Source of the DNA: Eubacteriales bacterium
GTDB lineage: Bacteria; Bacillota; Clostridia; Oscillospirales; CAG-272
Direction: 5' to 3'
Assembly (NCBI GenBank): GCA_051868045.1
Contig: JBJDZN010000041.1
Coordinates: forward strand, 13,087 to 77,086
Length of the DNA stretch: 64,000 nt
The position numbers and the translations under genes were made by a program. Shown piece by piece: positions 10,470 to 54,609 of this stretch. Numbering within the stretch: the first letter of the stretch is position 1; each line of letters opens with the position of its first letter. The notes under the pieces were generated by a model that was given only the letters and a program-made list of their open reading frames with translations, did not search any database and had not been told where the DNA came from.

Positions 10470-11071
10470 AACAAACTCACCCGAAATGCCTTCTTTTCCT
10501 CATGGCTGCAAAAGAGCCGTACGGTTACCGCAAAGGTGATCAGCCCGCACCCGATCAGCAGAGGGAGATCCCGTTCTGCGATAAACAGATAGACCAATAC
10601 CGACAGATAGGTGACCAGCGTCCGATAAAAGTGAGGAGAAATGCGGAGGATCACCGAATAAAACAGGAAGAAGAAAATCAGCGCAAGAAGGGGACGGTAG
10701 GCAGGCAGAAGTGCCAGAAAACAGCCAAAGGTGGTGGCAATGCCCTTCCCGCCCTTGAAATGGTTAAAAACCGGGAAAATATGTCCCAGCACCGGTGCGG
10801 CAAGCACCAATGGGAAGAGATAGGACGACCGAGCGTCGGGGACCCGGGTCAGATACAGGAGAATCGGTGCCGCACCCTTGCCCATGTCTCCGATCAGCGT
10901 CAGAATCCCGCAGAGAAAGCCGCCCTGCATGAAGGCATTTGCCGTACCGGGGTTCTCGTCCTTGGTCCCCTCAGTCACATCCCTGCCGAACAGCCCGCCG
11001 ATCACTCTGGCGAAAAGAACCGACCCGCACAGATAACCGAGGAAAATGTAAAACACCGATTTCATCGCCAA
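10457..11071 (-). CDS. plsY: glycerol-3-phosphate acyltransferase PlsY
   Basis: GTKDENPGTANAF and HIFPVFNHFKGGKGIAT motifs in a roughly 200-aa polytopic protein. TTG at 11071 has GAAAGGA 7 nt upstream; ATG at 11065 is the alternative. Confidence 0.9.
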   Translation of the reverse strand: MAMKSVFYIFLGYLCGSVLFARVIGGLFGRDVTEGTKDENPGTANAFMQGGFLCGILTLIGDMGKGAAPILLYLTRVPDARSSYLFPLVLAAPVLGHIFPVFNHFKGGKGIATTFGCFLALLPAYRPLLALIFFFLFYSVILRISPHFYRTLVTYLSVLVYLFIAERDLPLLIGCGLITFAVTVRLFCSHEEKKAFRVSLLWKR

Positions 11072-11236
11072 TACTTTATCCTTTCAATGATTTATCAAGG
11101 GTTATATCATCGGAAAACGGGAAGATTGCTGCTTTCCGTTGACCGGTACCCCATTTTACCACAATTTCCGCCGGTTGTCAAGCAACAGATTTGAAAAGAT
11201 GTCTTATAAATGGGCAAAATCCCGTGAAATTTTCGG

Positions 11237-11277
11237 AAAAAGAACGCTGAGGGGCTTTCGCTCCTCAGCGTTCTTTT
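11237..11277. terminator. bidirectional intrinsic terminator
   Basis: AAAAA-GAACGCTGAGG ggctttcgct CCTCAGCGTTC-TTTT, downstream of the rubredoxin gene. Confidence 0.7.
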
Positions 11278-11319
11278 CCTTGCGGGACTTTTTCCCTTTG
11301 GATTTATGGCTTTCAAGCC

Positions 11320-11475
11320 TTATTCGGCTTTCTCAAATGCGTCCTTGCCAAGTCCGCAGATGGGGCATTCGAAATCCTCGGGAACCTCCTCCCAAGGGGT
11401 GCCGGGAGCGATGCCGTGATCGGGATCGCCCACTTCCGGGTCATATTCATAACCACAGGGACAGATGTACTTCAT
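11320..11475 (-). CDS. rubredoxin (51 aa, below the ORF-track length cut-off)
   Basis: My translation is [51 protein letters not shown]. It has the classic GDPD..GI.PGT and CPxCG motifs, and sits 55 nt downstream of rubrerythrin. Confidence 0.85.
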
Positions 11476-11530
11476 GATCGGAAAACCTGCCTTTCGTCAG
11501 TCTTTGTTTTCAGAAGGAGTTGTCCGTGAA

Positions 11531-12079
11531 TTACTTGCCGAAGTATCTCTTCAGCAGTCCCTCGAAGGCTCTGCCATGTCTTGCCTCGTCACGTGCCATC
11601 TCGTGAACGGTATCGTGAATGGCATCCAGATTCAGTGCCTTTGCACGCTTTGCAAGATCAACCTTTCCCTCGGTTGCGCCATGCTCGGCGTCCACTCTCA
11701 TCTGAAGGTTCTTCTCGGTGGAATCGGTAACAACCTCGCCCAGAAGCTCAGCAAACTTTGCAGCATGCTCTGCCTCTTCATAGGCTGCCTTCTCCCAGTA
11801 GAGACCGATTTCGGGATAACCCTCACGGTGAGCCACTCTTGCCATTGCCAGGTACATGCCGACCTCGGAGCATTCGCCGTTGAAGTTGGCGCGCAGATCC
11901 TCCAGAATATCCTCGGGAACACCCTTTGCAACGCCGACAACATGCTCAGCTGCCCAAACCTTCTCGCCTGCCTCCTGCTTTACCATCGGCTTGCCGCAGA
12001 TAGGGCATACCGTGGGAGCGGGCTGACCGTCCGGAACCTCTTCAACATAACCGCATACGGGACATACATATTTTGCCAT
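11531..12079 (-). CDS. rbr: reverse rubrerythrin (N-terminal rubredoxin-like CxxC..CxxC, C-terminal diiron four-helix bundle)
   Basis: [11 protein letters not shown]...VCPICGKP is followed by ExxH-type ferritin-like helices ([18 protein letters not shown]). ATG 12079 has GAGGTG 7 nt upstream; the track's GTG at 12088 would overlap that RBS. Confidence 0.9.
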
Positions 12080-12231
12080 TTGAATCACCTCATAATTTAT
12101 TTGATACCCCTATTATACTCTCTCCTTGTGGCAAAATCAAGTCTAATTTGTGAACATTTAAGACCAAGTCCTAAAAATATTCCCTTGCGATGAAAAAAGC
12201 GAAAATGTGGACAGAAATTTCCATCATAGTC

Positions 12232-12260
12232 TTGAATTGTTAAAAAATTCGGGCTATAAT
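12232..12260 (+). promoter_or_regulatory. sigma-70-like promoter candidate
   Basis: TTGAAT at 12232-12237, 17-nt spacer, TATAAT at 12255-12260. Confidence 0.45.
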
Positions 12261-12285
12261 AGGGGTAACGAACACATATGGAGGT

Positions 12286-13443
12286 ATGACTATGACCAAC
12301 GATACAAACGGTTCCGGCATTGACAATGTCTACAAGCCCAAAAAGACGCCGCTGCTGATCGGCGTAATTCTGCTGGTTCTGGTGGTAATCATCATCGGAC
12401 TGACCGCCTTTCTGCTGCTTCGCGGAGAGGGAGACGAGCCCCTGCCGGTCGATAAGACGACCACTCAGAGTGCAAATACGAGTGCGGGCAACACACCGGT
12501 TATCAGCGATCCGACGGCGACGACAGATGTTTCCACCACGCCTACCCCATCGGGTACCCAGGACGTTCCCTCCACGGGAGCTGCGACCACGCCTGCCGAA
12601 TCAAAACCCACTGAGCCTGCCATCACAACCACTACCCGCCGCTATGATCAGTCTGACCCCGTCGCCATTACGGTTGAAGCCACCGTCACCGATATGTTCC
12701 GCGGCAGTCTGGTTCTGATTGACGAAAACCACCGCTACAACATTTCGGTCGAAAAGCTGATCGGCAGAACCGAGATGAATGGTCTCAGCAGCAGCACCCT
12801 GATGTCCGAATACGGTTTTGTCAAAGTCGCCAGCAGTCCCTATTACACCCGGAAAAGCACCACGCTGTTCCTGAATGCAGAAGCCAATACCGAGTTTGTC
12901 AACATGATGAACGCCTTTGCCGCAGAGACCGGCAACACCGACGTTCAGCTTCGCAACGCCTACTATTACGACAAGGACGAGCAGGTCAGCTACAACTGCA
13001 CCGGTCTGTATGTGGATCTGGAGATTCACAAGGAAGAGGGACTTTATCCCCTGAACTACGAGACCTTCCGTTCGGATTACTACGACTGGTTCATCGACAA
13101 CTGCTACCGTTTCGGTTTTATCCATATGTGGGAAATCAAATCCTCCTCCGGACAGGATCAGTACTCCACCTTCCGTTATGTGGGGATTCCTCATGCCACC
13201 TATATGCACTATAATAACATAGGGGACCTGGAGGATTATCTGGAGATTCTGAAGACCCATCCCATCGAGAAGGTACTGACCATCACCGATGACGACGACG
13301 TGGCATGGCAGGTTTACTACGTTCCCGCCACCGCAGGAACCACCGAGATTGTCCTGACCGGAACCCCCAATTCCTACACCATCTCGGGCAACAATACCGA
13401 CGGTTACATCGTAACCATCAACACCGCTTATTTCAGCAGATAA
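12286..13443 (+). CDS. membrane-anchored VanY/M15B-like domain protein, probably catalytically degenerate
   Basis: N-terminal TM segment, then a Thr/Pro-rich linker. The C-terminal TGLYVDLE, DWFIDNCYRFGFI and FRYVGIPHATYM resemble VanY blocks, but both expected His ligands are replaced. Confidence 0.6.
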   Translation: MTMTNDTNGSGIDNVYKPKKTPLLIGVILLVLVVIIIGLTAFLLLRGEGDEPLPVDKTTTQSANTSAGNTPVISDPTATTDVSTTPTPSGTQDVPSTGAATTPAESKPTEPAITTTTRRYDQSDPVAITVEATVTDMFRGSLVLIDENHRYNISVEKLIGRTEMNGLSSSTLMSEYGFVKVASSPYYTRKSTTLFLNAEANTEFVNMMNAFAAETGNTDVQLRNAYYYDKDEQVSYNCTGLYVDLEIHKEEGLYPLNYETFRSDYYDWFIDNCYRFGFIHMWEIKSSSGQDQYSTFRYVGIPHATYMHYNNIGDLEDYLEILKTHPIEKVLTITDDDDVAWQVYYVPATAGTTEIVLTGTPNSYTISGNNTDGYIVTINTAYFSR

Positions 13444-13460
13444 AAAATATATTGATTTAT

Positions 13461-13495
13461 CCGGGGAAAACTTTTTTGAAAAAAGTTTTCCCCGG
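13461..13495. terminator. perfect palindromic hairpin (same family as 3604 and 21257)
   Basis: CCGGGGAAAACTTTTTT ga AAAAAGTTTTCCCCGG. Confidence 0.6.
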
Positions 13496-13607
13496 ACCCT
13501 TTTCAAAAAACTTATAAAAAAAAGAATTGTTCCTGCGGAAAAGACCGGTCAAATGGCGGTCATTCCGACGTTTTTTCAAAAAAATCCGACTTTTTTTCTT
13601 TCTCCTC

Positions 13608-13636
13608 TTGACAAAGCCATCTGTCTGTGCTAAAAT
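13608..13636 (+). promoter_or_regulatory. sigma-70-like promoter candidate for the aromatic operon
   Basis: TTGACA at 13608-13613, 17-nt spacer ending in TGC, TAAAAT at 13631-13636. Confidence 0.5.
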
Positions 13637-13683
13637 GAGGAAAAATGTACAGAATCGACGGGCAAAGCCATGAAACAGTATTT

Positions 13684-13808
13684 TGCAGCTGCATATTCCT
13701 ACTATTATTTCTATTCTGCGAAATAATAGTGTTTTGTGCTGCACTTTTTTGTGAAATGTCCGTCTGTAACCCCGCAGATGACTCCGCAGCACCGGCTGCG
13801 GTTTTTTT
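13684..13808 (+). promoter_or_regulatory. leader with two tandem terminator-like hairpins (candidate attenuator)
   Basis: Hairpin 1 is TGCAGC...CTATTATTT/AAATAATAG...GCTGCA followed by T6 (13684-13750). Hairpin 2 is CCGCAGC accg GCTGCGG followed by T7 (13784-13808). A second CCGCAG copy at 13772-13777 could form an alternative pairing. Confidence 0.45.
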
Positions 13809-13832
13809 ATTGGAAAAGGAAGGAGCATCCCT

Positions 13833-14663
13833 ATGACTATCGGAATTGTCGGGCTGGGACTGATCGGAGGATCGCTGGCAAAAGCCTACAAGGAGGCAGG
13901 ACACACGGTCTATGCCTGCAACCGCACCCATTCTACGCTGGAGGTCGCCATTGCCGCCGGCGTGGTGGACGAGGAACTGACCCCCGAGTCAATCGAAAAG
14001 TGTGAATTCATCCACCTGACCCTCTATCCCGATGCCTGCATCGCCTGGCTTCGGGAAAATGCCTCTCACATTGCGAAAACCTCCGTCGTGCTGGACGACT
14101 GCGGCACCAAGCGTAAGATCTGCGCCGCCTGCTTTGAAATCGCCCGCCGGTACGGCTTTACCTTTGTCGGCGGACATCCCATGGCAGGAACCCATTTTTC
14201 GGGCTTCCGTTACAGCCGTGCCACCATGTTCAGCGGCGCATCCATGATTCTGGTTCCCGAAAATCAGACCGATTTTCTGCTGATCGAGCGGGTCACCGCC
14301 TCGCTGGAGCCCCTTCATCTGAAAAAGGTGGTCACCACCGATCCGGAAAATCACGACCGCATGATCGCCTACACCTCCCAGCTTGCCCATGTGGTGTCCT
14401 CTGCCTATATCAAATCGCCCTCCGCCCAACGGCACAAGGGGTACAGTGCCGGCTCCTTCCGTGACCTGACCCGTGTGGCATGGCTCAACGAGAAGATGTG
14501 GACCGAGCTGTTCCTGGAAAACGGCGATTTTCTGGCAGATGAGATTGATCTGATCATCAAGAATCTCAGCGAATATTCGGAATCCATCCGTCAGGGCGAC
14601 GCCGAACGGCTGGAGGCACTGCTCCGGGACGGACGGATTGCCAAGGAAAAGTCGGAGTCGTAA
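13833..14663 (+). CDS. tyrA: prephenate dehydrogenase
   Basis: N-terminal Rossmann IGIVGLGLIGGSLA, plus GGHPMAG and HDRMIAYTSQLAH motifs. AAGGAAGGAG RBS. Confidence 0.9.
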   Translation: MTIGIVGLGLIGGSLAKAYKEAGHTVYACNRTHSTLEVAIAAGVVDEELTPESIEKCEFIHLTLYPDACIAWLRENASHIAKTSVVLDDCGTKRKICAACFEIARRYGFTFVGGHPMAGTHFSGFRYSRATMFSGASMILVPENQTDFLLIERVTASLEPLHLKKVVTTDPENHDRMIAYTSQLAHVVSSAYIKSPSAQRHKGYSAGSFRDLTRVAWLNEKMWTELFLENGDFLADEIDLIIKNLSEYSESIRQGDAERLEALLRDGRIAKEKSES

Positions 14664-14768
14664 GCCTTTGGACAAGAAAAGTCACAAAAGCAACCTCCCT
14701 TTGTGCGGTCAATTCTGCCCGGACGAGCATTCCGTTCCCGCCTATTCTCCGAAAACAAGAAAGGATTC

Positions 14769-43647: not shown

Positions 43648-44319
43648 ATGGATTTTCGCATTTTTATCGTCGAGGACGATCCCGTGATCGCCGGGGCGAT
43701 TCAAAAACAGTTCCGAGGCTGGGGCTGTGACACCTTCACCGTGTCCGATTTTGCGTCAGTCACTGCCGAATTCGTCCGGGCGGACCCCCATCTGGTGATT
43801 CTGGACATTTCCCTGCCCTTCTTCAACGGTTATCACTGGTGCGCAGAGATCCGCAAGCTCTCAAAAGTGCCCATTCTCTTCCTGTCTTCGGCATCCGACA
43901 ACCTGAATATCGTCATGGCAATGAACATGGGCGCCGACGATTTTATCGCAAAGCCCTTCGATCTGGAGGTCCTCACCGCCAAGGTTCAGGCACTGCTCCG
44001 CCGGGCGTATGACTTTGCTCCCCACATAGGGTTGATGGAATACCGGGGGCTGATGCTGAACCGATCGGATTCCAGCTGCCGATACGGGGATCAGGAGGTG
44101 GAACTGAGCAAAAACGAGTTCCGAATCCTCCGGATTCTCATGGAAAACCGGGGATCGGTGGTCACACGGGATGCCATCATGACCGCTCTCTGGAAATCGG
44201 ACAGTTTCGTGGACGAGAACACCCTGTCGGTCAACGTGGGACGCCTGCGCAAGAAGCTGGAGGGCGTGGGTCTTCCCGATTTCATCAAAACCAAGAAGGG
44301 CATTGGATACCTCGTCTGA
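43648..44319 (+). CDS. OmpR/PhoB-family response regulator
   Basis: Receiver domain (IVEDDP...LDISLP) plus a winged-helix domain (ELSKNEFRILRIL...LSVNVGRLRKKLE). Confidence 0.92.
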   Translation: MDFRIFIVEDDPVIAGAIQKQFRGWGCDTFTVSDFASVTAEFVRADPHLVILDISLPFFNGYHWCAEIRKLSKVPILFLSSASDNLNIVMAMNMGADDFIAKPFDLEVLTAKVQALLRRAYDFAPHIGLMEYRGLMLNRSDSSCRYGDQEVELSKNEFRILRILMENRGSVVTRDAIMTALWKSDSFVDENTLSVNVGRLRKKLEGVGLPDFIKTKKGIGYLV

Positions 44320-44377
44320 CGATACTTCCGTATCCGAACAAACTCCCCCGCAAACAAGCATCGAAAGGGGCATTTTC

Positions 44378-45358
44378 ATGTTGTTTTTGTCCTATCTGAA
44401 GAAAATCCGGATGCAACTGATTTCCGTCCCGGTCTGCGCCCTGATTCTCACCGCCATCACCCTGCTGTCCGATCTTCCCGCCGCAGAACTGCTCTACGGC
44501 GGGATTCTTTGCCTGGTTTTTCTCCTGATTCTCGCCATCGTGGACTTTGTCCGCTTTTATCGCCGACACGTTCTGATGAAGAAGATCGCAGAGGGTCTGC
44601 CTCTGAGTCTGGAGCACCTGCCAAAGCCCTGCGATCTTGCCGAAGAGGACGATATTCAGCTGATTGAAAGCCTCCATCGGGAAATCACCGCCCTGTCCGA
44701 CCGTTTTACCGCCGAGCGGCGGGAACGGGAGGACTACTATACCGTCTGGGCGCACCAGATCAAGACCCCCATTGCCGCCATGCGGCTGCTGATGCAATCG
44801 GGGGAGATCGCCTGTCCCGAGGCGGAAGGGGAACTGTTCGAGATCGAGCAGTATGTGGAGATGGCACTGGGCTATCTTCGCATGGAAAGCGAGTTCACCG
44901 ATTATCGCATCCGGCAGTGCGATCTTGACGGCATTCTCCGGTCGGTCATTCACGCCTATGCGGGACAGTTTATCCGAAAAAAGCTGTCGCTGGACTTCCG
45001 TCCCACCTCTCTGACGGTTCTTACCGATGAAAAGTGGCTTTCCTTCGTCATCGGACAGATTCTGCAAAACAGTTTGAAATACACCCGACAGGGCGGGATC
45101 ACGATCCGAAGCGAGGGAAGAAGTCTGATCATCGAAGACACGGGCATAGGAATTGCTCCCGACGACCTGCCGAGAATCGGGCAGAAGGGATTCACGGGGC
45201 ATAACGGCAGACTGGAGCAGAAATCCACCGGACTGGGGCTATACCTGTGCAGGACGATTCTCGGACGTCTTTCCCACACGCTGGAGATCACCTCAACCGT
45301 GGGTGTTGGAACAAAGGTGGTCATCGGACTGGATCGGACCCATCTCCAGGTGGAATAG
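44378..45358 (+). CDS. intramembrane-sensing histidine kinase (BceS-like)
   Basis: Two TM helices with a roughly 10-aa loop, H-box WAHQIKTPIAAM and an HATPase_c domain (IEDTGIGI, GLGLYLC). ATG 44378 follows AAAGGGG. Confidence 0.88.
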   Translation: MLFLSYLKKIRMQLISVPVCALILTAITLLSDLPAAELLYGGILCLVFLLILAIVDFVRFYRRHVLMKKIAEGLPLSLEHLPKPCDLAEEDDIQLIESLHREITALSDRFTAERREREDYYTVWAHQIKTPIAAMRLLMQSGEIACPEAEGELFEIEQYVEMALGYLRMESEFTDYRIRQCDLDGILRSVIHAYAGQFIRKKLSLDFRPTSLTVLTDEKWLSFVIGQILQNSLKYTRQGGITIRSEGRSLIIEDTGIGIAPDDLPRIGQKGFTGHNGRLEQKSTGLGLYLCRTILGRLSHTLEITSTVGVGTKVVIGLDRTHLQVE

Positions 45359-45512
45359 GCACAGGCGGCAGATGCTCCCCGCCGACAAAGGGAGTCTCCT
45401 CCCAAAGATTTGACCCTTTGGGGTAAAAACCTCCGTCCACCTGCAAACCTCCCTCAAAAAGGGCGGCAATATTCCCATTTATCATCAAACCCATCTTCAG
45501 AAAACAACCTTT

Positions 45513-45557
45513 GAGGCTGCAGCAAAAACGACAATTTTTGCTGCAGCCTCATTTTTG
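45513..45557. terminator. strong bidirectional terminator between the kinase gene and the transglutaminase cluster
   Basis: GAGGCTGCAGCAAAAA cgacaa TTTTTGCTGCAGCCTC followed by ATTTTTG. Confidence 0.8.
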
Positions 45558-45583: not shown

Positions 45584-48500
45584 TTATCGGTGCTTCTTAC
45601 GGTTCCGTTTTCTCAGAATCCCCGCCGCAAGCAGCGACGCACCGATCAGGACGCCCAGCGACACCCACAGGATGACGGGAACCGGATGCTCGGTCTTTTC
45701 CGTCACTCTGATGGGATACGGATAGGATGCCGCCTCGTATTCGGGTACGCCATCCCCGTTAAGGTCCCACGGGTCGCAGTTCATGACCAGAATCGCAGAC
45801 CCCGTCCGGATTCCGTAAAGGCGGCTGCCCTCCAGCCGAACGGTTCCGTTTGCGTCACTGAGCCGATAGCTTGCCGGAAATGCCGCAATCCCATCCGACC
45901 ATGCCACATCGGTCAGTTCCAGTTTTCCGTCAACCGGGACGGTCAGCGTCCGTCTGGCAAGGGGAAGGGGAGCAGGTGTGACGGTCAGTATGCCCGAATA
46001 AACGGTGAGGCTGTACAGCCGGGTCACATCCTTGCCCTGGGCATCCAGCACAACCAGACTGCCGCAGACGTTTTCCGTGCTTCCCGCATAAAGCTGATAG
46101 CTGCCCGACTTTATCACAATCTGATCTCCCTCCCTGAGGGCTCCCGACAGCAGTCGGAAATCCTGACAGGTCAGGGGCGTTCCGTCGTATCCGGCACTTG
46201 CATCCCCCATGGTGAGGCTGACGGCAATATATTCGTTTCCGTCGGGTCCCGTCACCAGAATCGGCTCAAATATGCCTGCATTCTCAACCTCGCCGGCAGA
46301 AAGGGCTTCGTCGCCGTTTTTGTCCACTACCGTGACGCTGGGGAAGGACTCGATTTCAAGTCTGAGGGTTGCCTTTCCCTCCGGAATGGTGTCCTCGTCA
46401 ACGTCAAACTCGTAGAGGATGCTTCCCTTTGATGCCATAAAGGTGTGAATCCGTTCGGGGTCTTCACTGTCAGGCTTTGCTCCCGTACAGTTGATACGGA
46501 CGATGGGCGTTACGCCAAACAGAACCTCCGGCATGTCTTCGGTCATCAGCTCCGAAATCGCCGGCAGCGTCAGGTCCGTCCCAAGATACACCTTGACCTC
46601 ATCGGGATTTATCTTGATCTCAATGGGATTCACCGTCAGCGTTCCGTCCAGGACGATCAGGTCGTACTCGTCGGTCACATCTCTGCCGGAACTGTCGTGA
46701 ATTTCAAGAATTTCGAAGTAAGAGGAAGAACATCCGGCGAAAAGCTGACTTCCGCCGACTTTTGCTATGATATAGTCGCCCTCCCGAAGGGATCCGGTAA
46801 GAATCTCATAGCCATCTGCAATCAGGGGCGAGCCGTCATAGTCCTTCTCCCCGGAATTCGGTACCACAACCAGAGCATCGCCCTGCGTAATATAGCCGTC
46901 TCCGGTGACTTCCACGGGAATCCAACCGAAGCTGTCCAGATAGATTTCCACCCATGCGTGAGCATTCAGGGCATTGAAGGCGGTCATCCTGCCGCCCTCG
47001 GCATCCACCATGAAGCCTCCCACCAAGCGGGCGGGAATCCCCAGCGTCCGATACATCAGCACCGCCGCCGAGGCGAAATGGATGCAGACCCCCTCCCGAC
47101 TCTCAGTCAGGAAGTAGATCACGGGATCCACCCCGTCCGGGCAGGACTCGTAGAACAGATTGTAGGATGCGCAGCCACGGATATAGTCACGGACTGCCGG
47201 AATCATGGCAGCCGGATCGGTGTCCTCTGCGAGCTTATACCGGGAGGCAAGTGTCAGCATTTCTGCCCGTATATCGTCGGGAACCGTCAGATAGTTGGCG
47301 TAGACGTAATATTTTTGGTAGTAAGCATCATCCAGCAACACGGAGCCGTCCTGCCGGCACGCCAGAATATCCTCCAGATCGTCTTGAGGCAGGAAGTTCA
47401 CCGAATACCCGACCGCCACATCGTGACTCCAGGGCATATTGCAGTCGTTGGGATAGTCCAAATCAACACCAAGACCGGGAAGAAGGTCGTAGCCGGGATT
47501 GGTGTAAAGTGTGATCGTCCCGGGCAGCACGGGATAATTGTAACTGTTTTTCAGAATATATCCGGCACTTTCCAGAGCACTAAGCTCCGGCATTCCCGGT
47601 ATCAGGTTTTCGGTACACAAATCCGGCATTCCCCATCTGCCGCCGCCCAGATAATCGCCGAAGCTGGTCATACGCAGGTAGTAGGAGCCGCTCTGTTCTG
47701 CCACCAGATTGCCCAGAGGTCCCAGATAGTCGGGAAGTCCGGAGTTCATGGGAATGTCGCCCGACAGATCGCCCAGCCCCGAAATCTGATCCAGTGAGGG
47801 AATTCCCTCGGGCAGAGTGATCGGCAGGTCTCCCGGGTCAGTACCCGGTATGGTACCCGGTGTGGTACCGGGTGTGGTACCCGGTGTGGTACCGGGTGTG
47901 GTCTCAGGAGGAACGTAGTCCGATTCCTTGACGGTCAGGGTTCCGTTTACATAGGTGATGGCGTAATTGGTCGTCACCGCCTCGCCACTCGGGAGATACA
48001 GTCCGAAGGACACCACATTGACCCGGCTGCCCACCTGGGTCTGCTTGGCATAAGACAGTGCCGTGAGAGCGGTATGGGGATCTGCCAGCGTCCCCTCCAG
48101 CAGGACATATCCGGTGGAATACAGGGGCGTTCCGTCGTAGAATTTCTCCGCCGTATCGGTTTGCAGGGTGATCTCCCGTCTCTTCACGGTCAGTTTGCCG
48201 TAGGTTGCCGTGATCTGATAGTTTGCCGTCACATCCTGACCGTCCGGGTCGAGGATGGTGCAGACAAAACTGTTGTCCGCACTGCCGGCATTGGTCAGCT
48301 GACGGAATACCGGCTTCAGCGTGTCCCCCTTAAGCAGGGTTCCGCCTGTCTGGGTATAGTTCTCGCAAACAAGGGGAGTCCCGTCGTACACCTTTTCGGC
48401 AGAGCCGGTGGTAAAGGACAGCTCGATGGGGGTCACTTTCAGTACGCCGCTGGTCTGAACAATCTCATAGCAGGAACTGACATCCATGCCATTGCTGTCC

Positions 48501-49549
48501 TGAACGGAAAAACGGAGAAGATTGGAGACGGTTCCCACATTCACAATGGAGGTGACCCCTTCAATGACCAGCCGATGTCCGTACAGCAGACTGCCGCCCA
48601 AAAGGTCATAGCCCATTTCCGACAGGGCATAGCGGTCGTATTGCTTGGTCGCCGAATGGGTTTGGATTGTCAGCCGTCTTGGCTCCACGGTCAGCGTGCC
48701 GTCCTGAAGGATCAGATCGTACGTTTCGGTCACATCGTTGCCGTCGGAATCGTAGATTCTGCCGGTAATGCTGTTGACGGCAACGCCCGGTTCGGTGATC
48801 ATGCCCTCCACGGTCACGTCCAGACGGTCGCCCTCCCGAAGGGTGCCGGATTCAAGGGTCCATTGGGGATTCTGCAAAAAATTTCCGTCGTAGACCTTGC
48901 TCGCACTTGAAGCCACTACCGTCAGCTTCCGTTTGATCACCGTCAGATAGCCCGACTCCACCGTCAGATTGTAGCAATCGGTCACGTCGGCACCGTTTTG
49001 GTTGACAATACGGAAATTGAGGATCTCCACCGACCGGCTGGTCTGAAGTTCCCCCGTAACCGAAAGTTCCACCCCGTCCAGACGGTCGCCGTCTGCCAGA
49101 TTGGACACGCGGATCCGACTTTCCAGTTCCGATGCCCGGGTGCCGTAATAAAGGGTGGTATCGGGAAAGGTGATCTTGGCATTCCGTCGGCTGATTTCAA
49201 AACTGCTGCCCACCTGCCGCACCGTTCCGAAGGGATTGCGGGTCTCGGCGATCATCTCATAGGAACCGATCTTTTCGGGATAGTCATCCGACCAGTCGTC
49301 ACTGCCCGTTTCGGCAAAACGGTAGTCCGGGAATGCCAGAAAGGCAGTGGCTCCGTAGCTCGGAGTGTCTCCGTATACGGCATTTTCACTGTATGCTCCG
49401 CCGAAAAAGGTACCGGAGTAGAAAAGCAGTACCAGAATTGCCGCCAAAAGCACCAGTGCAAGGATGACGAACACCGGCTTGTGCCGCTTGACGAAGTCGA
49501 TCCGACGGGCAATCTTCCGCATTTTTTCCACATACGCATCATAGGTCAT
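45584..49549 (-). CDS. 1321-aa envelope protein: N-terminal TM, MBG(YDG)-type repeats, PT linker, transglutaminase-like Cys-protease core, more MBG repeats, C-terminal TM
   Basis: TM PVFVILALVLLAAILVLLFY. Repeats of the KVYDGTPL...G.L..GD...DVT.NY.I....G.L.V type. Core EGVCIHFASAAVLMYRTLGIPARLVGGF...NAHAWVEIYLDSFGWIPVEVTG. C-terminal VPVILWVSLGVLIGASLLAAGILRKRNRKKHR. Confidence 0.85.
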   Translation of the reverse strand: MTYDAYVEKMRKIARRIDFVKRHKPVFVILALVLLAAILVLLFYSGTFFGGAYSENAVYGDTPSYGATAFLAFPDYRFAETGSDDWSDDYPEKIGSYEMIAETRNPFGTVRQVGSSFEISRRNAKITFPDTTLYYGTRASELESRIRVSNLADGDRLDGVELSVTGELQTSRSVEILNFRIVNQNGADVTDCYNLTVESGYLTVIKRKLTVVASSASKVYDGNFLQNPQWTLESGTLREGDRLDVTVEGMITEPGVAVNSITGRIYDSDGNDVTETYDLILQDGTLTVEPRRLTIQTHSATKQYDRYALSEMGYDLLGGSLLYGHRLVIEGVTSIVNVGTVSNLLRFSVQDSNGMDVSSCYEIVQTSGVLKVTPIELSFTTGSAEKVYDGTPLVCENYTQTGGTLLKGDTLKPVFRQLTNAGSADNSFVCTILDPDGQDVTANYQITATYGKLTVKRREITLQTDTAEKFYDGTPLYSTGYVLLEGTLADPHTALTALSYAKQTQVGSRVNVVSFGLYLPSGEAVTTNYAITYVNGTLTVKESDYVPPETTPGTTPGTTPGTTPGTIPGTDPGDLPITLPEGIPSLDQISGLGDLSGDIPMNSGLPDYLGPLGNLVAEQSGSYYLRMTSFGDYLGGGRWGMPDLCTENLIPGMPELSALESAGYILKNSYNYPVLPGTITLYTNPGYDLLPGLGVDLDYPNDCNMPWSHDVAVGYSVNFLPQDDLEDILACRQDGSVLLDDAYYQKYYVYANYLTVPDDIRAEMLTLASRYKLAEDTDPAAMIPAVRDYIRGCASYNLFYESCPDGVDPVIYFLTESREGVCIHFASAAVLMYRTLGIPARLVGGFMVDAEGGRMTAFNALNAHAWVEIYLDSFGWIPVEVTGDGYITQGDALVVVPNSGEKDYDGSPLIADGYEILTGSLREGDYIIAKVGGSQLFAGCSSSYFEILEIHDSSGRDVTDEYDLIVLDGTLTVNPIEIKINPDEVKVYLGTDLTLPAISELMTEDMPEVLFGVTPIVRINCTGAKPDSEDPERIHTFMASKGSILYEFDVDEDTIPEGKATLRLEIESFPSVTVVDKNGDEALSAGEVENAGIFEPILVTGPDGNEYIAVSLTMGDASAGYDGTPLTCQDFRLLSGALREGDQIVIKSGSYQLYAGSTENVCGSLVVLDAQGKDVTRLYSLTVYSGILTVTPAPLPLARRTLTVPVDGKLELTDVAWSDGIAAFPASYRLSDANGTVRLEGSRLYGIRTGSAILVMNCDPWDLNGDGVPEYEAASYPYPIRVTEKTEHPVPVILWVSLGVLIGASLLAAGILRKRNRKKHR
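47840..47903. repeat. about five tandem 12-nt units (GGTACCNGGTGT) encoding (TPGT)n
   Basis: Read directly from the sequence. It corresponds to ETTPGTTPGTTPGTTPGTIPGTDPG in the 1321-aa protein. Confidence 0.9.
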
Positions 49550-49598: not shown

Positions 49599-50198
49599 TC
49601 ATTCCTGATCCGAAGCGGACACCATATAGTCTTCCAGATTTTTGACGATGTAGGTTCCGCCGGTTCTTCCGACATCATCTTCCCATTTGATAACGAACAT
49701 CAGGCTGTCGCCGCCCTGAAGGGTCATCTCACCGGGCAGATCCAGATAGCTTTCCTCTTCCCAATCATCGTCCGAACCGTCCTCGGCGGCAAGATAGACG
49801 GTATTTACCGAACGGGTCCCATTGTACTGGGTACAGCTGAGATCGGTGATCCGCAGCTTGCCCGACCCCCGCTTGTAGATTCGAAGGGTATAGCTGACAT
49901 AGCCGTCCCCGCCGTCTGAGGAGGTATACACCTGAAGGTCAAGACAGCGAAGCTCAAAGGAGCTGCTCGTGGTGCTTGTCTCTTCAATTGCGGGCTTGGG
50001 ACGGCTGCTGATCCCTTCGGTATTGACGCTGTACACGGGACTCTGATCGGGAACCGACGGGTCGTCCCAAAACAGTCCGAATACCGCCAGTGTCAGCAGC
50101 AGAATCAGCACCAATGCCAGACTGACGATAGCTGTGGCAAGGATGCGGATTCCGCCGTCCCGGATCACGGTTTTCTTTCTTGGATTTTGTATTTTCAT
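49599..50198 (-). CDS. small bitopic membrane protein with an acidic extracytoplasmic beta-rich domain (no family recognised)
   Basis: MKIQNPRKKTVIRDGG, then TM IRILATAIVSLALVLILLLTLAVFGLF. Its ATG and RBS lie inside the duplicated segment. It ends 49 nt upstream of the transglutaminase gene. Confidence 0.7.
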   Translation of the reverse strand: MKIQNPRKKTVIRDGGIRILATAIVSLALVLILLLTLAVFGLFWDDPSVPDQSPVYSVNTEGISSRPKPAIEETSTTSSSFELRCLDLQVYTSSDGGDGYVSYTLRIYKRGSGKLRITDLSCTQYNGTRSVNTVYLAAEDGSDDDWEEESYLDLPGEMTLQGGDSLMFVIKWEDDVGRTGGTYIVKNLEDYMVSASDQE

Positions 50199-51345
50199 CT
50201 GTTATCCTGCCTTTCGGGAAGGTTGCCCGACTTCTGTGTCGGTCGATTTTTCAATGGAGGAATTTGCCAAGGGTGCGTCTGCACAGGGGAAGTCCGTCCT
50301 CCCCGAAGAGGTTGTCCAGACAATCCTCCAGCCCCTTTGCCTCGGTGCGCACATAAACCGGATTCTGATTTTCCAGCTTCCGCAGTACCTTCCGGGCGAT
50401 GATCTGATCCACACCGTCCATCTCCCTGCCTCCGCAGGCGAGATAAACCGGGATAAAGCCCTCGATCTGGCTCATAATCCGGTTCCCGAAGGTGATGCCC
50501 AGATGTCCGATCAGATAGGCATCCAGTGCCTCGATCTTCTCCCGCACCTCTTCGCTGAGCCGATATTTCACCCTTGCCTCACGGAACAGCCTGTCCAGCT
50601 GATTTCCCGTCAGACTCACGCCCTCGGCACTCCCGGAGGCGGAAAAGGGCTTCGCCCGGCGATCCAGATCCAGCACCATGGCACGGTCGTAGACCTTGTC
50701 CGAGATGGCGAGGGTCGAATCGTCGTTGTTTGCCGTTCCCACGAACCAGACCGTGTCGGGAATGTGGAGCTTGCCGTTCTTCAGCCGTTTGGGATCGTCC
50801 GAACGGCTGTCGGACACGATCTCAACGGTGCGGCTCTGACTGTCGGGTAGTTCCAGAACCGACAGAAATTCGGCAAAATAATATTCCACACGGGCGATGT
50901 TCATCTCGTCCAGCACGGCGACATAGACTCTGTCGTTGGTTCCCGCCTCGTACAGCTTCTGGAGCAGTTCGGTCTCATGGAAGGTGCCGGTGAACTCGTT
51001 GAAATAGCCCAGCAGATCGGTTCTGTCCTTCCAGGAAGGCTGAACGGGAACCATCACGGCATCGTTGCCCATGAATTTTCCGAAGGCATACGCCAGCGAG
51101 GTTTTTCCGGTGCCGGAAATGCCCTGCATAATGATCAGCTTGGTCACCGACATCCCGGCGACGAAGGATCGGATCACGTCGGCATCGTAGTACAGTCCCA
51201 TCTGTCCGGCGGCGAAATTCCGGAAACGGGTGCAAAGCTCGGACAGGGTCAGATTGGGGTCCCCCTTGGGGGTCTGCACCGTCTGACGGTCGGTCTGACA
51301 CAGCCGATAAAACCGGGGTTCCTCTTCCGCCCCCTTGGCGGAACC
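50195..51345. repeat. direct repeat copy A (1151 bp) covering the AAA+ core, stop codon, 52-nt spacer, RBS and ATG of the next gene
   Basis: It aligns to 53264-54414 at a constant offset of 3069. By eye there are no mismatches over 50195-51177 and about eight mismatches in 51178-51345. Confidence 0.9.
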
Positions 51346-51708
51346 TTTCCACGACAGATTTTTTCGGGAGGACGTCCGAAAGCGGAGGGCGATCAGGAAG
51401 AGAATCAGAAGAATGAAGAGAATCAGAAAGCCCAATGCCAGAATCAGCACGATGGATTTGGGAAGTGAGAGCAGCTGGCTCCATCCCTCGCTGTCCTCCT
51501 CGGTGGTATGAACCGTCAGCGAGAGAATCAGCAGAATCCCCAAAATCAGCACGGGAATCAAAAACCATGCCGCAAGGGAGGGTCGGTTGTCCTTTTTATC
51601 TTTTTTCATATGGGTTGTCAATGCCTTTCTCCAATCCGTTGGAATAATATCGTTCGAATAGGTTATTTCCGACAATAATTGGGGGGATTTCACAAAAGGG
51701 AGTCGCAT
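50251..51708 (-). CDS. membrane-anchored McrB-family AAA+ GTPase, paralog 2 (two predicted TM helices)
   Basis: Walker A GISGTGKTS. VQPSWKDRTDLLGYF. Walker B-plus VAVLDEMNIARVEYYFAEFLSVLE. VWFVGTANNDDST (NxxD). TM helices AAWFLIPVLILGILLILSL and IVLILALGFLILFILLILFLIAL. Start is ATG 51708 (preferred, see findings) or ATG 51609; the GTG at 51810 is rejected. Confidence 0.8.
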   Translation of the reverse strand: MRLPFVKSPQLLSEITYSNDIIPTDWRKALTTHMKKDKKDNRPSLAAWFLIPVLILGILLILSLTVHTTEEDSEGWSQLLSLPKSIVLILALGFLILFILLILFLIALRFRTSSRKNLSWKGSAKGAEEEPRFYRLCQTDRQTVQTPKGDPNLTLSELCTRFRNFAAGQMGLYYDADVIRSFVAGMSVTKLIIMQGISGTGKTSLAYAFGKFMGNDAVMVPVQPSWKDRTDLLGYFNEFTGTFHETELLQKLYEAGTNDRVYVAVLDEMNIARVEYYFAEFLSVLELPDSQSRTVEIVSDSRSDDPKRLKNGKLHIPDTVWFVGTANNDDSTLAISDKVYDRAMVLDLDRRAKPFSASGSAEGVSLTGNQLDRLFREARVKYRLSEEVREKIEALDAYLIGHLGITFGNRIMSQIEGFIPVYLACGGREMDGVDQIIARKVLRKLENQNPVYVRTEAKGLEDCLDNLFGEDGLPLCRRTLGKFLH

Positions 51709-51722
51709 ACCTGATTTCCGAT

Positions 51723-53267
51723 TCAGCCCTGTCCGTCCCCGTTTTCTGCCGTTTTCTTGCCCTTTTTGAACAGTTCCTCCTTGCGGATTCGCTGTTTCGC
51801 CAGTCTCCACTGATGCTTGTAGTACTTCTCAAAGGCAAAATACTCCCGCTCCAGTCTCAGAAACCGTTCCCTTGTGGTGTAATCGGTTTCTTCTTCCTTT
51901 TCACCGGCAAGCAGGCGACAGCCTCTGAGCTGTCCGACAAGCAAAGCCCGTTCCTGCTCCCAAACCTCTTCCCTTTCGGAAAGTTCCTTTTCGTGGAGCC
52001 GATCCCGCTCCAACAGTGCCTTTTCCGAGCGGATAACCTCATCGGAAAGCATCTTTTCGCCCTGCTTCATCGCCGCACGGACATCCTGCTCCAGCGAATC
52101 CATCCGCCGAAGCTGCTCCTCTGCGCGGACCTTTGCCTCATCAAGCCGACTCTCTGCCTCTGCATTCTGCCGTTCCGATTCTGTCAGCCGATCGGACAAA
52201 TCCCGATTAGCCAAAAGAACCCTTTCAAGACGGTCTTCCAGCAGTGCAATGTACTCCTTGTCGGACAGCTTCTCCCGTCCTGCCGCAATCTCCTGCCGGA
52301 CCTCCTCATGATACCGAATCTCTTCCTCTTTCAGAAGCTCCTCCAATTGGGGTACCCTGTCGCAAGCCAGATCGGAAAAGACCAGACGTAGCATTTCTCC
52401 GATCTCGCTCAGCATTTCCCGATCCCTTTGGGGCAGTTCCTTTCTGCTCTCCTCCCGACTTTCTACCCGATAGCCGGTGCCCCGGTAGGCATGAAGATAG
52501 GAGTACAGCTCGTATGCCGCCGCAAAATGGCGGTTGCTCCGCAGAACGTTGGTCTGAACCACCGGAGGACGAAGCAGAGGGGCTTTCGCCACCTCTTGCA
52601 TCAGATCGGTGGCAAGCAGGGTTTCGATCTGGGCAAGAATTTCGGACAGGCGTTTGGTAGGCGATGTCGGATCGGTTCCCCGTGCGGTACGGGTATCGGT
52701 CATCCGATTCTGCCAGAGAAGTTCGCTGTCCCGGTCGCTGACCCCCATGCTGCTGCACAGTTCCAGCATCCTGCCCTCGCTGACTCCTGCCATTTCACGG
52801 TATTTCAGGGAAACAAAGTCCTTGATGTAAAGAAACAGGGCGTAAAGAAAGCGATTTTCATAGACGGCGTAGTTTTCGGAATTTTCAATGATGTAGATCT
52901 CCTCGGGAACCAGACGTTCCTCGTCATCGGGATGGGGTTTGAGCAGTTCCGAGTGACCCGCCAGATGGCGCACCGATTCCTTGGTGGGATGCTTGGCGCG
53001 GTCAATGCGTACCACGTCCCCCTCCTTATTGATCTGACTGCGCTGCTGCTCCACCGCTTTAACCAGATGGGGCATGGCGTTCTCGATCTGCTCGATCCAG
53101 TCGTCGCACAGCTCGCACTGCTGACTGCGGAAGGTCAGTTCAAAGGGGGTCTCGCCGACCTCGGTAAACGCCGGTTTTCCCTTGCTCCGCTCCCTGCAAA
53201 GGCTTCGGAGAACCCGATAATATTTCAGATCACGGGAGTTATCATTTTTTTCGTTTGTTAGGCTCAT
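51723..53267 (-). CDS. McrC-like N-terminal region fused to a long coiled coil; no nuclease motif seen
   Basis: The ENYAVYENRFLYALFLYIKDF block resembles the YENRF signature of McrC/DUF2357 N-domains (from memory). Residues ~290-470 are heptad-like and E/R/L/K-rich. I find no PD-(D/E)xK or HNH pattern. Confidence 0.7.
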   Translation of the reverse strand: MSLTNEKNDNSRDLKYYRVLRSLCRERSKGKPAFTEVGETPFELTFRSQQCELCDDWIEQIENAMPHLVKAVEQQRSQINKEGDVVRIDRAKHPTKESVRHLAGHSELLKPHPDDEERLVPEEIYIIENSENYAVYENRFLYALFLYIKDFVSLKYREMAGVSEGRMLELCSSMGVSDRDSELLWQNRMTDTRTARGTDPTSPTKRLSEILAQIETLLATDLMQEVAKAPLLRPPVVQTNVLRSNRHFAAAYELYSYLHAYRGTGYRVESREESRKELPQRDREMLSEIGEMLRLVFSDLACDRVPQLEELLKEEEIRYHEEVRQEIAAGREKLSDKEYIALLEDRLERVLLANRDLSDRLTESERQNAEAESRLDEAKVRAEEQLRRMDSLEQDVRAAMKQGEKMLSDEVIRSEKALLERDRLHEKELSEREEVWEQERALLVGQLRGCRLLAGEKEEETDYTTRERFLRLEREYFAFEKYYKHQWRLAKQRIRKEELFKKGKKTAENGDGQG

Positions 53268-54414
53268 CTGTTATCCTGCCTTTCGGGAAGGTTGCCCGAC
53301 TTCTGTGTCGGTCGATTTTTCAATGGAGGAATTTGCCAAGGGTGCGTCTGCACAGGGGAAGTCCGTCCTCCCCGAAGAGGTTGTCCAGACAATCCTCCAG
53401 CCCCTTTGCCTCGGTGCGCACATAAACCGGATTCTGATTTTCCAGCTTCCGCAGTACCTTCCGGGCGATGATCTGATCCACACCGTCCATCTCCCTGCCT
53501 CCGCAGGCGAGATAAACCGGGATAAAGCCCTCGATCTGGCTCATAATCCGGTTCCCGAAGGTGATGCCCAGATGTCCGATCAGATAGGCATCCAGTGCCT
53601 CGATCTTCTCCCGCACCTCTTCGCTGAGCCGATATTTCACCCTTGCCTCACGGAACAGCCTGTCCAGCTGATTTCCCGTCAGACTCACGCCCTCGGCACT
53701 CCCGGAGGCGGAAAAGGGCTTCGCCCGGCGATCCAGATCCAGCACCATGGCACGGTCGTAGACCTTGTCCGAGATGGCGAGGGTCGAATCGTCGTTGTTT
53801 GCCGTTCCCACGAACCAGACCGTGTCGGGAATGTGGAGCTTGCCGTTCTTCAGCCGTTTGGGATCGTCCGAACGGCTGTCGGACACGATCTCAACGGTGC
53901 GGCTCTGACTGTCGGGTAGTTCCAGAACCGACAGAAATTCGGCAAAATAATATTCCACACGGGCGATGTTCATCTCGTCCAGCACGGCGACATAGACTCT
54001 GTCGTTGGTTCCCGCCTCGTACAGCTTCTGGAGCAGTTCGGTCTCATGGAAGGTGCCGGTGAACTCGTTGAAATAGCCCAGCAGATCGGTTCTGTCCTTC
54101 CAGGAAGGCTGAACGGGAACCATCACGGCATCGTTGCCCATGAATTTTCCGAAGGCATACGCCAGCGAGGTTTTTCCGGTGCCGGAAATGCCCTGCATAA
54201 TGATCAGCTTGGTCACCGACATCCCGGCGACGAAGGATCGGATCACATCGGCATCGTAGTACAGTCCCATCTGTCCGGCGGCAAAATTCCGAAAACGGGT
54301 GCAAAGCTCGGACAGGGTCAGATCGGGATCCGCCTTGGGGGTCTGCACCGTCTGACGGTCGGTCTGACACAGCCGATAGAACCGGGGTTCCTCTTCCGCC
54401 CCCTTGGCGGAACC
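53264..54414. repeat. direct repeat copy B (1151 bp)
   Basis: See copy A. Confidence 0.9.
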
Positions 54415-54609
54415 GCCGCTTTTGGCGCCGACCGTCTGCACCTGATGAAACCGCAGGGTCAGGAGGACGACGAAAAGGATCAGCAGGAGAAGAAGGGCGA
54501 TCATGTACAGAAAGACAGCGGTGTGTCCGGTCAGTGCCGACCAGATTCCGGAATTCCGGATACTTTGCAGAAAATCCGAATTGTCAAGGGAAAGAGCGGG
54601 AATAACCAT
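53320..54609 (-). CDS. membrane-anchored McrB-family AAA+ GTPase, paralog 1 (one predicted TM helix)
   Basis: Same AAA+ core as paralog 2, with an identical C-terminal ~325 aa. N-terminal MVIPALSLDNSDFLQSIRNSGIWSALTGHT, then TM AVFLYMIALLLLLILFVVLLTL. AAAGG RBS 9 nt upstream. Confidence 0.85.
   Translation of the reverse strand: MVIPALSLDNSDFLQSIRNSGIWSALTGHTAVFLYMIALLLLLILFVVLLTLRFHQVQTVGAKSGGSAKGAEEEPRFYRLCQTDRQTVQTPKADPDLTLSELCTRFRNFAAGQMGLYYDADVIRSFVAGMSVTKLIIMQGISGTGKTSLAYAFGKFMGNDAVMVPVQPSWKDRTDLLGYFNEFTGTFHETELLQKLYEAGTNDRVYVAVLDEMNIARVEYYFAEFLSVLELPDSQSRTVEIVSDSRSDDPKRLKNGKLHIPDTVWFVGTANNDDSTLAISDKVYDRAMVLDLDRRAKPFSASGSAEGVSLTGNQLDRLFREARVKYRLSEEVREKIEALDAYLIGHLGITFGNRIMSQIEGFIPVYLACGGREMDGVDQIIARKVLRKLENQNPVYVRTEAKGLEDCLDNLFGEDGLPLCRRTLGKFLH

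Follow-up and report, generated by a model that had tools for sequence, protein, structure and literature searches.

We analysed a window of 64,000 nucleotides (nt) from a Eubacteriales bacterium (CAG-272; assembly GCA_051868045.1, contig JBJDZN010000041.1, positions 13,087-77,086 of the forward strand), in which five closely spaced genes on the minus strand, running from position 54609 to 45584, encode two membrane-anchored nucleoside triphosphatases (NTPases) of the McrB family, an McrC-like partner, a small bitopic membrane protein and a giant surface protein. McrBC is a textbook DNA restriction motor. The explanation that we favour, giving it about an even chance of being right, is that these genes encode a non-restriction, envelope-associated derivative of McrBC, i.e. 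a restriction motor re-used for a job at the cell envelope; the identity of the individual parts we regard as highly probable. The initial annotation of this region described the two NTPase paralogs and missed the direct repeat that they form, the McrC-like gene between them and the surface-protein operon to which they belong. Related loci from other genomes are designated below by L-numbers (e.g. L001, L076) and related proteins by P-numbers (e.g. P0003).

Paralog 1 (53320..54609, minus strand, 429 aa) and paralog 2 (50251..51609, minus strand, 452 aa) possess the same AAA+ core. Both open reading frames (ORFs) are present on the minus strand with the outer limits originally given for the pair, 50251 and 54609, and each of the four motifs quoted for them is found in both proteins: the Walker A motif GISGTGKTS (aa 140-148 in paralog 1 and 163-171 in paralog 2), VQPSWKDRTDLLGYF (aa 166-180 and 189-203), LDEMNIARVEYYFAEFLSVLE (aa 210-230 and 233-253) and VWFVGTANNDDST (aa 264-276 and 287-299). 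The paralogs share these motifs because their genes are a near-perfect DNA repeat, which is described further below. Among 44 diverse homologs the four motifs are invariant or almost so; they also align without gaps (HMMER, hhalign) on the E. coli McrB blocks GPPGVGKT, VQFHQSYSYEDFIQGY, IDEINRANLSKVFGEVMMLME and VYIIGLMNTADRS. The residues invariant in the 44 homologs comprise K146 of Walker A, D211/E212 of Walker B, N271-N272-D273-D274, R286 and R354, and given this conservation both cores are expected to be active NTPases. The AlphaFold2 model of paralog 1 has a mean predicted local distance difference test score (pLDDT) of 85, and the ortholog P0003 is identical to paralog 1 in length and start.

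The proposal that the cores are of the McrB type rather than MoxR is borne out by sequence and profile searches (hhalign, PDB, NCBIfam, Pfam) and by the presence of a DUF2357 gene between the paralogs. A single-protein phmmer search of the PDB returned E. coli McrB as the best match (E 1e-5), and the profile of the 44-member family found E. coli McrB sequences alone at E<=0.1 (best E 2.4e-5), with no MoxR-family chain at E<=1. In the hhalign comparison the core family matched E. coli McrB with 96.2% probability (E 2.7e-9), gap-free through the Walker A, signature, Walker B and sensor-1 blocks, whereas the MoxR-family protein RavA obtained 1.1%. In NCBIfam the top match was McrB (E 1.1e-5, far below the cut-off of that equivalog) and the remaining matches were weak P-loop families; in Pfam the AAA_5 family scored 21.7 bits against a gathering threshold of 22, and AAA_3/MoxR gave no match to the cores at E<=0.1. 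We conclude that, by sequence, the nearest characterised relative of the cores is McrB.

These results bear directly on the possibility that the paralogs are MoxR-type chaperone ATPases and the operon a version of the MoxR-DUF58-transglutaminase (TgpA-type) arrangement. MoxR-DUF58-TgpA operons encode an AAA+ NTPase, a small accessory protein and an outward-facing membrane-anchored transglutaminase-like protein, and the gene order in the window (AAA+, small protein, transglutaminase membrane protein) resembles them; Foldseek matches of the core also include the MoxR-like NorQ and CHU_0153, at the level of the general clade only. The operon logic is thus similar, as an analogy only. The AAA+ proteins of the window are, however, of the McrB type and themselves membrane-anchored, the accessory proteins are unrelated to those of MoxR operons, and the partner carries DUF2357, not DUF58 or VWA. 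With the profile searches pointing to McrB and away from MoxR, membership in the MoxR family is not supported and this alternative is very improbable, although a functional analogy to MoxR operons is possible.

The initial annotation also read the sensor-1 motif as the NxxD pattern of guanine specificity. The NNDD of the cores is indeed in gap-free register with the N-T-A-D of E. coli McrB, but the same NNDD occurs in CoCoPALM-type GTPases, where it is classed as 'NxD followed by D' (PMC11090510), so that N271-N272-D273-D274 is readable either as NxxD or as 'NxD+D' sensu Bell et al.

In place of a reader domain, the paralogs carry membrane anchors. One hydrophobic helix had been proposed for paralog 1 and two for paralog 2, and Kyte-Doolittle analysis and the homologs agree, as does the AlphaFold2 model in the case of paralog 1. 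The transmembrane (TM) segment of paralog 1 spans aa 31-52 (54454..54519, minus strand), with a hydropathy peak of 3.36 (19-residue Kyte-Doolittle mean; all peaks given here are far above the threshold), and AlphaFold2 models residues 29-62 as a single helix with pLDDT 90-95 over the hydrophobic part. Paralog 2 begins with a basic N-terminus, MKKDKKDNR, followed by a TM hairpin (51385..51576, minus strand) delineated by hydropathy and flanking charges: TM1 (aa 12-33, 51511-51576, peak 2.71), an acidic loop with no Lys or Arg and four Asp or Glu (aa 34-52, 51454-51510) and TM2 (aa 53-75, 51385-51453, peak 3.52). There are four Lys or Arg on the N side of TM1, and both paralogs are basic after their last TM segment. 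From this charge distribution, and from the motor's need for cytoplasmic nucleotide, we predict that paralog 1 has its N-terminus outside and one TM segment, that paralog 2 has its N-terminus inside and two, and that the AAA+ core is cytoplasmic in both; the loop of paralog 2 and the N-terminal tail of paralog 1, which bears a W..LT(G/S)H motif, would be exoplasmic. In paralog 1 this juxtamembrane motif is IWSALTGH (54523-54546, minus strand), on the N side of the TM segment, and it recurs in most one-TM homologs. Among the best 120 of at least 8000 homologs nearly all possess one or two N-terminal TM helices, hence the anchors are not due to chance.

The claim that there is no room for a DNA-binding domain likewise stands, as paralog 1 has only ~30 residues before its TM segment and ~45 between it and the AAA+ fold. 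Ahead of the core, both proteins have no more than a short tail, their TM helix or helices and ~45 residues of linker, and lack the DNA (modified-base) reader domain of the McrBC type; the linker of paralog 1 (aa 55-98) is short, rich in Gly, Ser and Pro, and modelled with low pLDDT.

Our analysis contradicts the proposal that translation of paralog 2 starts at ATG 51708. The maximal ORF extends over 50251-51810, but in the ortholog from L001, a Eubacteriales metagenome-assembled genome, which is 86% identical, the protein starts at the ATG equivalent to 51609 (N-terminus MTSEKKNK...) and two in-frame stop codons lie upstream of it. The intergenic regions upstream of paralog 2 in the window and in L001 differ by indel blocks of ~20-40 nt, and only the ribosome-binding block, i.e. 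the last ~30 nt, is conserved; it reads GGAGAAAGGCATTGACAACCCAT-ATG in the window and has few base differences in L001. The segment 51610..51722 (minus strand) between the McrC-like gene and paralog 2 is therefore, by the alignment with L001 and the in-frame stops there, a non-coding spacer that holds this block. The start MKKDKKDNR also fits the Lys-rich starts of the two-TM homologs. We accordingly place the true start of paralog 2 at ATG 51609, not 51708 or 51810; a start at 51708 would put 33 spurious residues on the protein. The short N-terminal patch thought to be common to the paralogs must be reinterpreted: both strings, IWSALTGH and DWRKALTTH, do occur, but DWRKALTTH is the non-coding ribosome-binding block in translation. 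The notion that homologous N-terminal tails lie on opposite sides of the membrane was an artefact of the wrong start codon. The TM segment of paralog 1, with 'GIWSALTGH' in front of it, and TM2 of paralog 2, with 'EGWSQLLSLPKS' in front of it, align without gaps, and since it is TM2 that corresponds, the paradox disappears: both stretches are predicted to be exoplasmic and juxtamembrane.

The gene between the paralogs (51723..53267, minus strand) encodes a protein of 514 aa with a DUF2357 region (~aa 40-290), a coiled coil (~aa 300-455) and a basic C-terminal helix (aa 466-502), and with no TM segment. The Pfam DUF2357 model matches 14 of 23 members of the middle-protein family (best E 2.7e-7); the protein from the window stays under the gathering threshold (18.3 against 23.3 bits). 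In hhalign the first ~250 residues of the family match the DUF2357 protein of L076, which passes the threshold, with 99.9% probability (E 4e-33). DUF2357 has been equated with the N-terminal domain of McrC (PMC11090510). The N-terminal half of the family is marked by the conserved motifs VYENRFLY and APxLxPPVxRTN, and is followed by a long helical region of variable sequence and a conserved basic C-terminal helix with QWKxAKxRIRKE. AlphaFold2 models a continuous helix of 118 residues (336-453, pLDDT ~90), corresponding to a coiled coil of ~17 nm; a search of PDB sequences with the family profile returned coiled-coil proteins only, for the coiled-coil region. No nuclease family in Pfam, NCBIfam or PADLOC matches the middle protein, the invariant columns of the family include no (D/E)xK motif, and residues ~280-510 are modelled as long helices that leave no room for a PD-(D/E)xK fold. 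We identify this protein, on the strength of its family profile, as an McrC-like DUF2357 partner without a nuclease.

The pairing of an McrB-type core with an adjacent DUF2357 partner is what would be seen in a conventional Type IV (McrBC) restriction enzyme, whose reader and nuclease would then have gone unrecognised. Yet the N-termini of the motors are TM helices with no spare sequence for a reader, the C-terminal half of the partner is one long helix, the operon contains no nuclease gene, and a ring tethered to the membrane would be poorly placed for DNA translocation; we consider such an enzyme hardly credible here. The comparison with McrBC of E. coli (6HZ4, 6UT6, 7VSR) shows the same balance. 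In both systems the partner gene is adjacent, and E. coli has, according to its annotation, two McrB isoforms on one motor (McrB-L and McrB-S), which loosely recalls the single core with two anchors seen here. The McrB-type proteins of the window, however, lack the DNA-binding N-terminal domain and are membrane-anchored, their partner has no PD-(D/E)xK nuclease and gave no match to E. coli McrC, and the isoforms come from two genes and not from an internal start.

The two motor domains are encoded by a direct repeat of 1151 nt. Copy 1 (53264..54414, minus strand) extends from codon ~66 of paralog 1 to its stop codon, copy 2 (50195..51345, minus strand) from codon ~89 of paralog 2 to its stop codon, and each includes a further 56 nt of spacer that ends exactly at the ATG of the next gene, i.e. 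the middle gene after paralog 1 and the gene for the 199-aa protein after paralog 2. The copies are offset by 3069 nt and differ by seven mismatches, all of them within the 5'-most 170 nt, nearest to the divergent 5' parts, so that the 3'-most ~980 nt are 100% identical. The same pattern recurs in 21 species-level loci (the window, L001, L007, L009, L010, L014, L015, L018-L020, L022, L023, L026, L028-L030, L034, L036 and L043-L045), which possess a within-locus direct repeat of 1.0-1.2 kb with 97.7-100% DNA identity and a spacing of 2.9-3.8 kb, always beginning after the TM region and ending at or just past the stop codon. Between loci, by comparison, the identity of this segment reaches at most 86.9% (median 70%). 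In the window, L001, L007 and L009 the paralog pair is 100% identical at the protein level over the whole soluble part, while orthologs from these loci are ~50-86% identical to one another. The membrane anchors are not homogenised and are orthologous across species. As the anchors are distinct and orthologous while the cores are identical within a genome, the duplication must be old and the cores repeatedly converted; the pattern thus points to recurrent gene conversion (concerted evolution), which homogenises the motor domains and spares the anchors. About ten loci have escaped conversion, their core copies being 73-90% identical or beyond the reach of blastn. As an example of concerted evolution this is exceptionally clear-cut, with DNA-identical motors and distinct, orthologously conserved anchors in 21 independent species.

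Identical copies of this length invite the suspicion of an assembly artefact, in which one core gene was written twice or two strains were merged: a perfect repeat of 1.1 kb is difficult for short-read assemblers, and related contigs are broken exactly in the core (L017, L053, L039). Broken contigs are, on the other hand, the expected outcome of a real repeat. The 5' ends of the copies differ and are conserved, and identity decays gradually at the junction, with the seven mismatches, rather than abruptly. The arrangement recurs in more than 20 independent assemblies, and the core-middle-core order is found also where the copies have diverged to 73-90% and could not be confused (L011, L013, L033, L051, L056, L058, L082). 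Because such diverged copies stand in the same tandem order, the architecture is not an artefact, and we give the suggestion next to no credence. Among the fragmentary loci, the Pumilibacter muris isolate (L053) has a contig of 1057 nt with a coverage of 761, L017 is a contig of 1079 nt, and the ends of the L039 contig overlap by 141 nt. These short contigs contain the core alone, or the core through the middle gene to the core, and resemble short-read assemblies that collapsed or broke at the repeat. The repeat breaks short-read assemblies at this locus, which is probably mis-assembled or split in many public genomes.

The repeats may also be viewed as a recombination switch, in which crossing-over between the identical copies would remove the McrC-like gene along with the two-TM anchor, and perhaps put them back, so converting a five-gene state into a three-gene state and back. 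Loci without the middle gene (L002, L031, L054, L055) have the structure of the predicted product, a one-TM anchor of the paralog 1 type with its core followed directly by the small or big gene, and the deletion product would keep its translation signals, since the repeat runs exactly as far as the ATG of the following gene. In L002 (10001-15854), and likewise in L031, L054 and L055, a one-TM core is followed by the small or big genes, and there is no McrC-like gene and no second core. Against a switch, these loci are fixed in separate lineages, and the three-gene form could equally be ancestral. We regard the switch, which is compatible with an envelope-associated McrBC derivative, as improbable. 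The concerted evolution itself points to a functional need for identical ring subunits, or to a recombination-based switch, or to both.

The core family is large, with at least 8000 homologs or protein clusters among the matches listed, and at least 573 loci in species-representative genomes, mostly metagenome-assembled genomes (MAGs) from gut or rumen. Most of the carriers belong to Clostridia (Christensenellaceae, Oscillospiraceae), Bacilli, Anaeroplasmataceae and Haloplasmataceae. As the system is present in wall-less Anaeroplasmataceae (L030, L036, L044), it does not depend on peptidoglycan anchoring. Among the 78 loci that we examined, ~55 are of the surface-protein type found in the window (type A), with the order [core, one TM]-[DUF2357 protein]-[core, two TM]-[small or large bitopic protein]-[giant protein]; the same order of five or six genes is found in divergent MAGs, and the one-TM core precedes the two-TM core in 29 of 33 core-middle-core loci. 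Type A loci are often preceded by a third paralog of ~1100 aa, whose core is devoid of Walker A and B (retained in 0 of 21). Such paralogs, found in L007 (4751-8008), L014 (1112-4447), L018 (6599-9937) and 18 other loci, have no counterpart in the window; in the copy that was scanned, from L007, an N-terminal region with Glyco_hydro_3_C and Fn3-like domains is followed by a TM hairpin and the McrB-like core.

Type B loci have the organisation [TM + FtsB-like coiled coil + core]-[DUF2357 protein], and none of 19 possesses a big protein. Several of them (L062, L069, L084 and L076, the latter at 9545-14732 of a HiFi-assembled Christensenellaceae chromosome) fit the published description of CoCoPALM, a system that Bell et al. 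(2024, eLife 13:RP94800; PMC11090510) introduced by name in a single paragraph and left for a 'forthcoming publication'. The supplementary text of that article makes no mention of transglutaminase or transmembrane, and in the literature we found neither later work on CoCoPALM nor an account of membrane-anchored McrB, the CoCoNuT article (PMC11090510) alone being relevant. In L076, the one type B locus looked at in detail for its neighbours, there are two signal-peptidase-like genes nearby, one with a TGSMEG motif and the other with a weak Peptidase_S26 match (E 6e-4).

The system of the window resembles CoCoPALM in several respects. Its core is ~51% identical to those of the loci with CoCoPALM features and has the identical block GTANNDDST(F/L)AISDKVYDR, a likeness that is read from these sequences and not from placement in the published tree; the GTPase is membrane-anchored in both; the McrC homolog is in both a DUF2357 protein with a coiled coil, and the two are homologous (hhalign 99.9%); neither has a nuclease, and the associated proteins are in both cases envelope or surface proteins, not methyltransferases. 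The two systems also differ. The GTPases of the window lack the FtsB-like coiled coil after the TM segment, where L076, L084 and L069 have a heptad-like stretch; the McrC-like gene stands between two active paralogs, one-TM and two-TM, that gene conversion homogenises; none of the five operon proteins has an S26 match; and the small bitopic and giant transglutaminase/MBG proteins are found in 43 of 43 window-type loci and in 0 of 19 of the CoCoPALM type. The system is therefore best filed as McrBC-derived and CoCoPALM-related, lacking two of the four features stated for CoCoPALM. With CoCoNuT and PDC-M26 it shares McrB-like GTPases of the same broad branch. CoCoNuT McrC homologs are often devoid of a nuclease and have coiled coils, while CoCoNuTs are always associated with HEPN or other nucleases and with helicases (PMC11090510). 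The operon of the window, in contrast, contains neither nuclease nor helicase, and its GTPases have TM anchors where those of CoCoNuTs have long soluble coiled coils.

Downstream of paralog 2 lies the gene of the small bitopic membrane protein (49599..50198, minus strand; 199 aa), which has a basic, cytoplasmic N-terminal tail, one TM segment and a beta-rich exoplasmic domain of ~150 aa. A positional ortholog occupies the same slot in L001, L002, L009-L013 and L057, yet the word-indexed search found only four relatives and the full HMMER scan of 1.8 billion representatives five, and no family in Pfam, NCBIfam or PADLOC matches; the protein evidently evolves very fast. Its profile compared with the S26-like 'TGSMEG' protein of L076 (itself without a Pfam S26 match) gave a probability of 0.5%. 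One of the five relatives, P0205, has 1009 aa and carries three copies of the exoplasmic domain.

The last gene (45584..49549, minus strand) encodes the giant surface protein of 1321 aa, with TM segments at aa 26-44 and 1290-1308, repeats of the YDG, MBG and AgI_II_C2 type, and a transglutaminase-like core with Cys822 and His864 (Pfam: Transglut_core E 5e-22, in addition to MBG_2, YDG and AgI_II_C2). In this core the usual Asp position is apparently occupied by Glu (GWIPVEVT). The protein is anchored at both ends, and its C-terminal tail reads RKRNRKKHR. The possibility that the C-terminus represents a sorting signal was rejected, as the ending with a TM segment and basic tail is limited to the close subgroup of the window (L001, L002, L010-L012, L057) and most of the other big proteins end in an MBG-type repeat. 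In all 43 loci with enough flanking sequence the ORF of the big protein begins within 1.5 kb (<=1.5 kb) of the last core, and Transglut_core was found in 5 of 5 big proteins sampled.

The five genes are separated by spacers of 49-113 nt, and a terminator-like hairpin (45512..45551, minus strand) with an 18-bp stem followed by a T-rich tail lies at their end; there is no comparable minus-strand terminator inside the operon. The spacing and the terminal hairpin point to a single five-gene operon. Paralog 1 is separated from the upstream aconitase gene by 376 nt. An Rfam search found no riboswitch (e.g. for cyclic di-GMP) upstream of the operon, and nothing in seven whole related loci either. On the plus strand, at 43648-45358, a pair of response-regulator and histidine-kinase genes is oriented towards the 3' end of the operon; the hairpin at 45512-45551 is bidirectional and common to the pair and the operon.

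Taken as an envelope-associated McrBC derivative, the system might work as follows. Two McrB-family isoforms with an identical soluble motor and different anchors would hold their AAA+ cores immediately beneath the membrane on its cytoplasmic side. On the model of E. coli McrBC, they would co-assemble into (mixed) hexameric rings, which identical cores would favour, and the McrC-like protein would dock into the ring and stimulate nucleotide hydrolysis. The TM helices and the exoplasmic juxtamembrane motifs would pass the work on to the surface proteins of the same operon rather than to DNA, in the service of assembly, display, remodelling or signalling. Recurrent gene conversion prevents the motor domains, but not the anchors, from diverging. 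That rings form, that the partner stimulates them and that they act on the surface proteins are all inferred from this analogy.

Several observations weigh against this explanation. In the Foldseek search of the PDB, the core model matched dynein, MCM, NorQ and MoxR-like chains (CHU_0153) at similar E-values of ~1e-6 to 1e-5, and McrB was not among the best 50 matches; since this search does not discriminate, the assignment to McrB rests on the sequence and profile evidence. When the middle protein was compared with E. coli McrC itself, no similarity emerged (hhalign 0.1%), and its model, dominated by the long helix, had no Foldseek match in the PDB below E 0.6. The link to McrC is thus one step removed, running through Pfam DUF2357 and its equation with the N-terminal domain of McrC (PMC11090510), and the loci without a middle gene (the four that resemble a deletion product) indicate that the McrC-like partner is dispensable in some lineages. 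As to the surface proteins, their connection with the motor consists of gene order only, and in most loci the cytoplasmic tails of the big proteins have only 5-25 residues, which makes classic AAA+ threading of those tails unlikely. Finally, the top match of the core in PADLOC is the defence-candidate protein PDC-M26A (E 5e-44).

This last match, the strongest in any library, leads to the main rival explanation, namely anti-phage defence of the McrBC/CoCoNuT lineage, in which the surface proteins or TM anchors would sense infection at the envelope and the membrane GTPase ring would be the effector, acting for instance by membrane disruption or abortive infection. The ancestry of the core in restriction systems agrees with such a role, and the fast evolution of the small protein would fit an arms race. 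The TM anchors would fit as well, since TM effectors are common in defence systems. However, the operon contains no nuclease and no other domain recognised as an effector; PADLOC has no match of any kind for the middle, small and big proteins; the locus lies between housekeeping genes (aconitase and ClpB), with synteny retained in its relative L001; and adhesin-like giant proteins, linked to the motor genes here in 43 of 43 loci, are not typical neighbours in defence islands. PDC-M26 is, moreover, itself only a candidate, on which we found no paper in the literature. On this balance a defence role seems unlikely, though it deserves to be taken more seriously than the other alternatives.

The envelope-associated derivative of McrBC remains the explanation that we prefer, and it can be extended, tentatively and with more doubt than belief, to a domesticated trans-envelope machine. 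Its rings, with two kinds of anchor and motors kept identical by gene conversion, would be gated by the nuclease-less coiled-coil McrC and would drive, at the expense of GTP, the assembly, tensioning or remodelling of giant transglutaminase-bearing surface fibrils, with recombination between the cores switching the operon between five-gene and three-gene forms. If true, such machines would form a class of surface-protein machinery not recognised before, with a wide distribution among gut Clostridia, Bacilli and wall-less Anaeroplasmataceae.

At the level of the family, our results document a large group of membrane-anchored McrB homologs without any of the parts related to nucleic acids, whose window-type loci are strictly linked to giant surface proteins. 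Re-use of the McrBC engine at the cell envelope, for which CoCoPALM is the single published hint, would thereby be extended, and the operon offers a concrete and abundant target in gut commensals, from Christensenellaceae and Oscillospiraceae to Bacilli-class MAGs and Anaeroplasmataceae.

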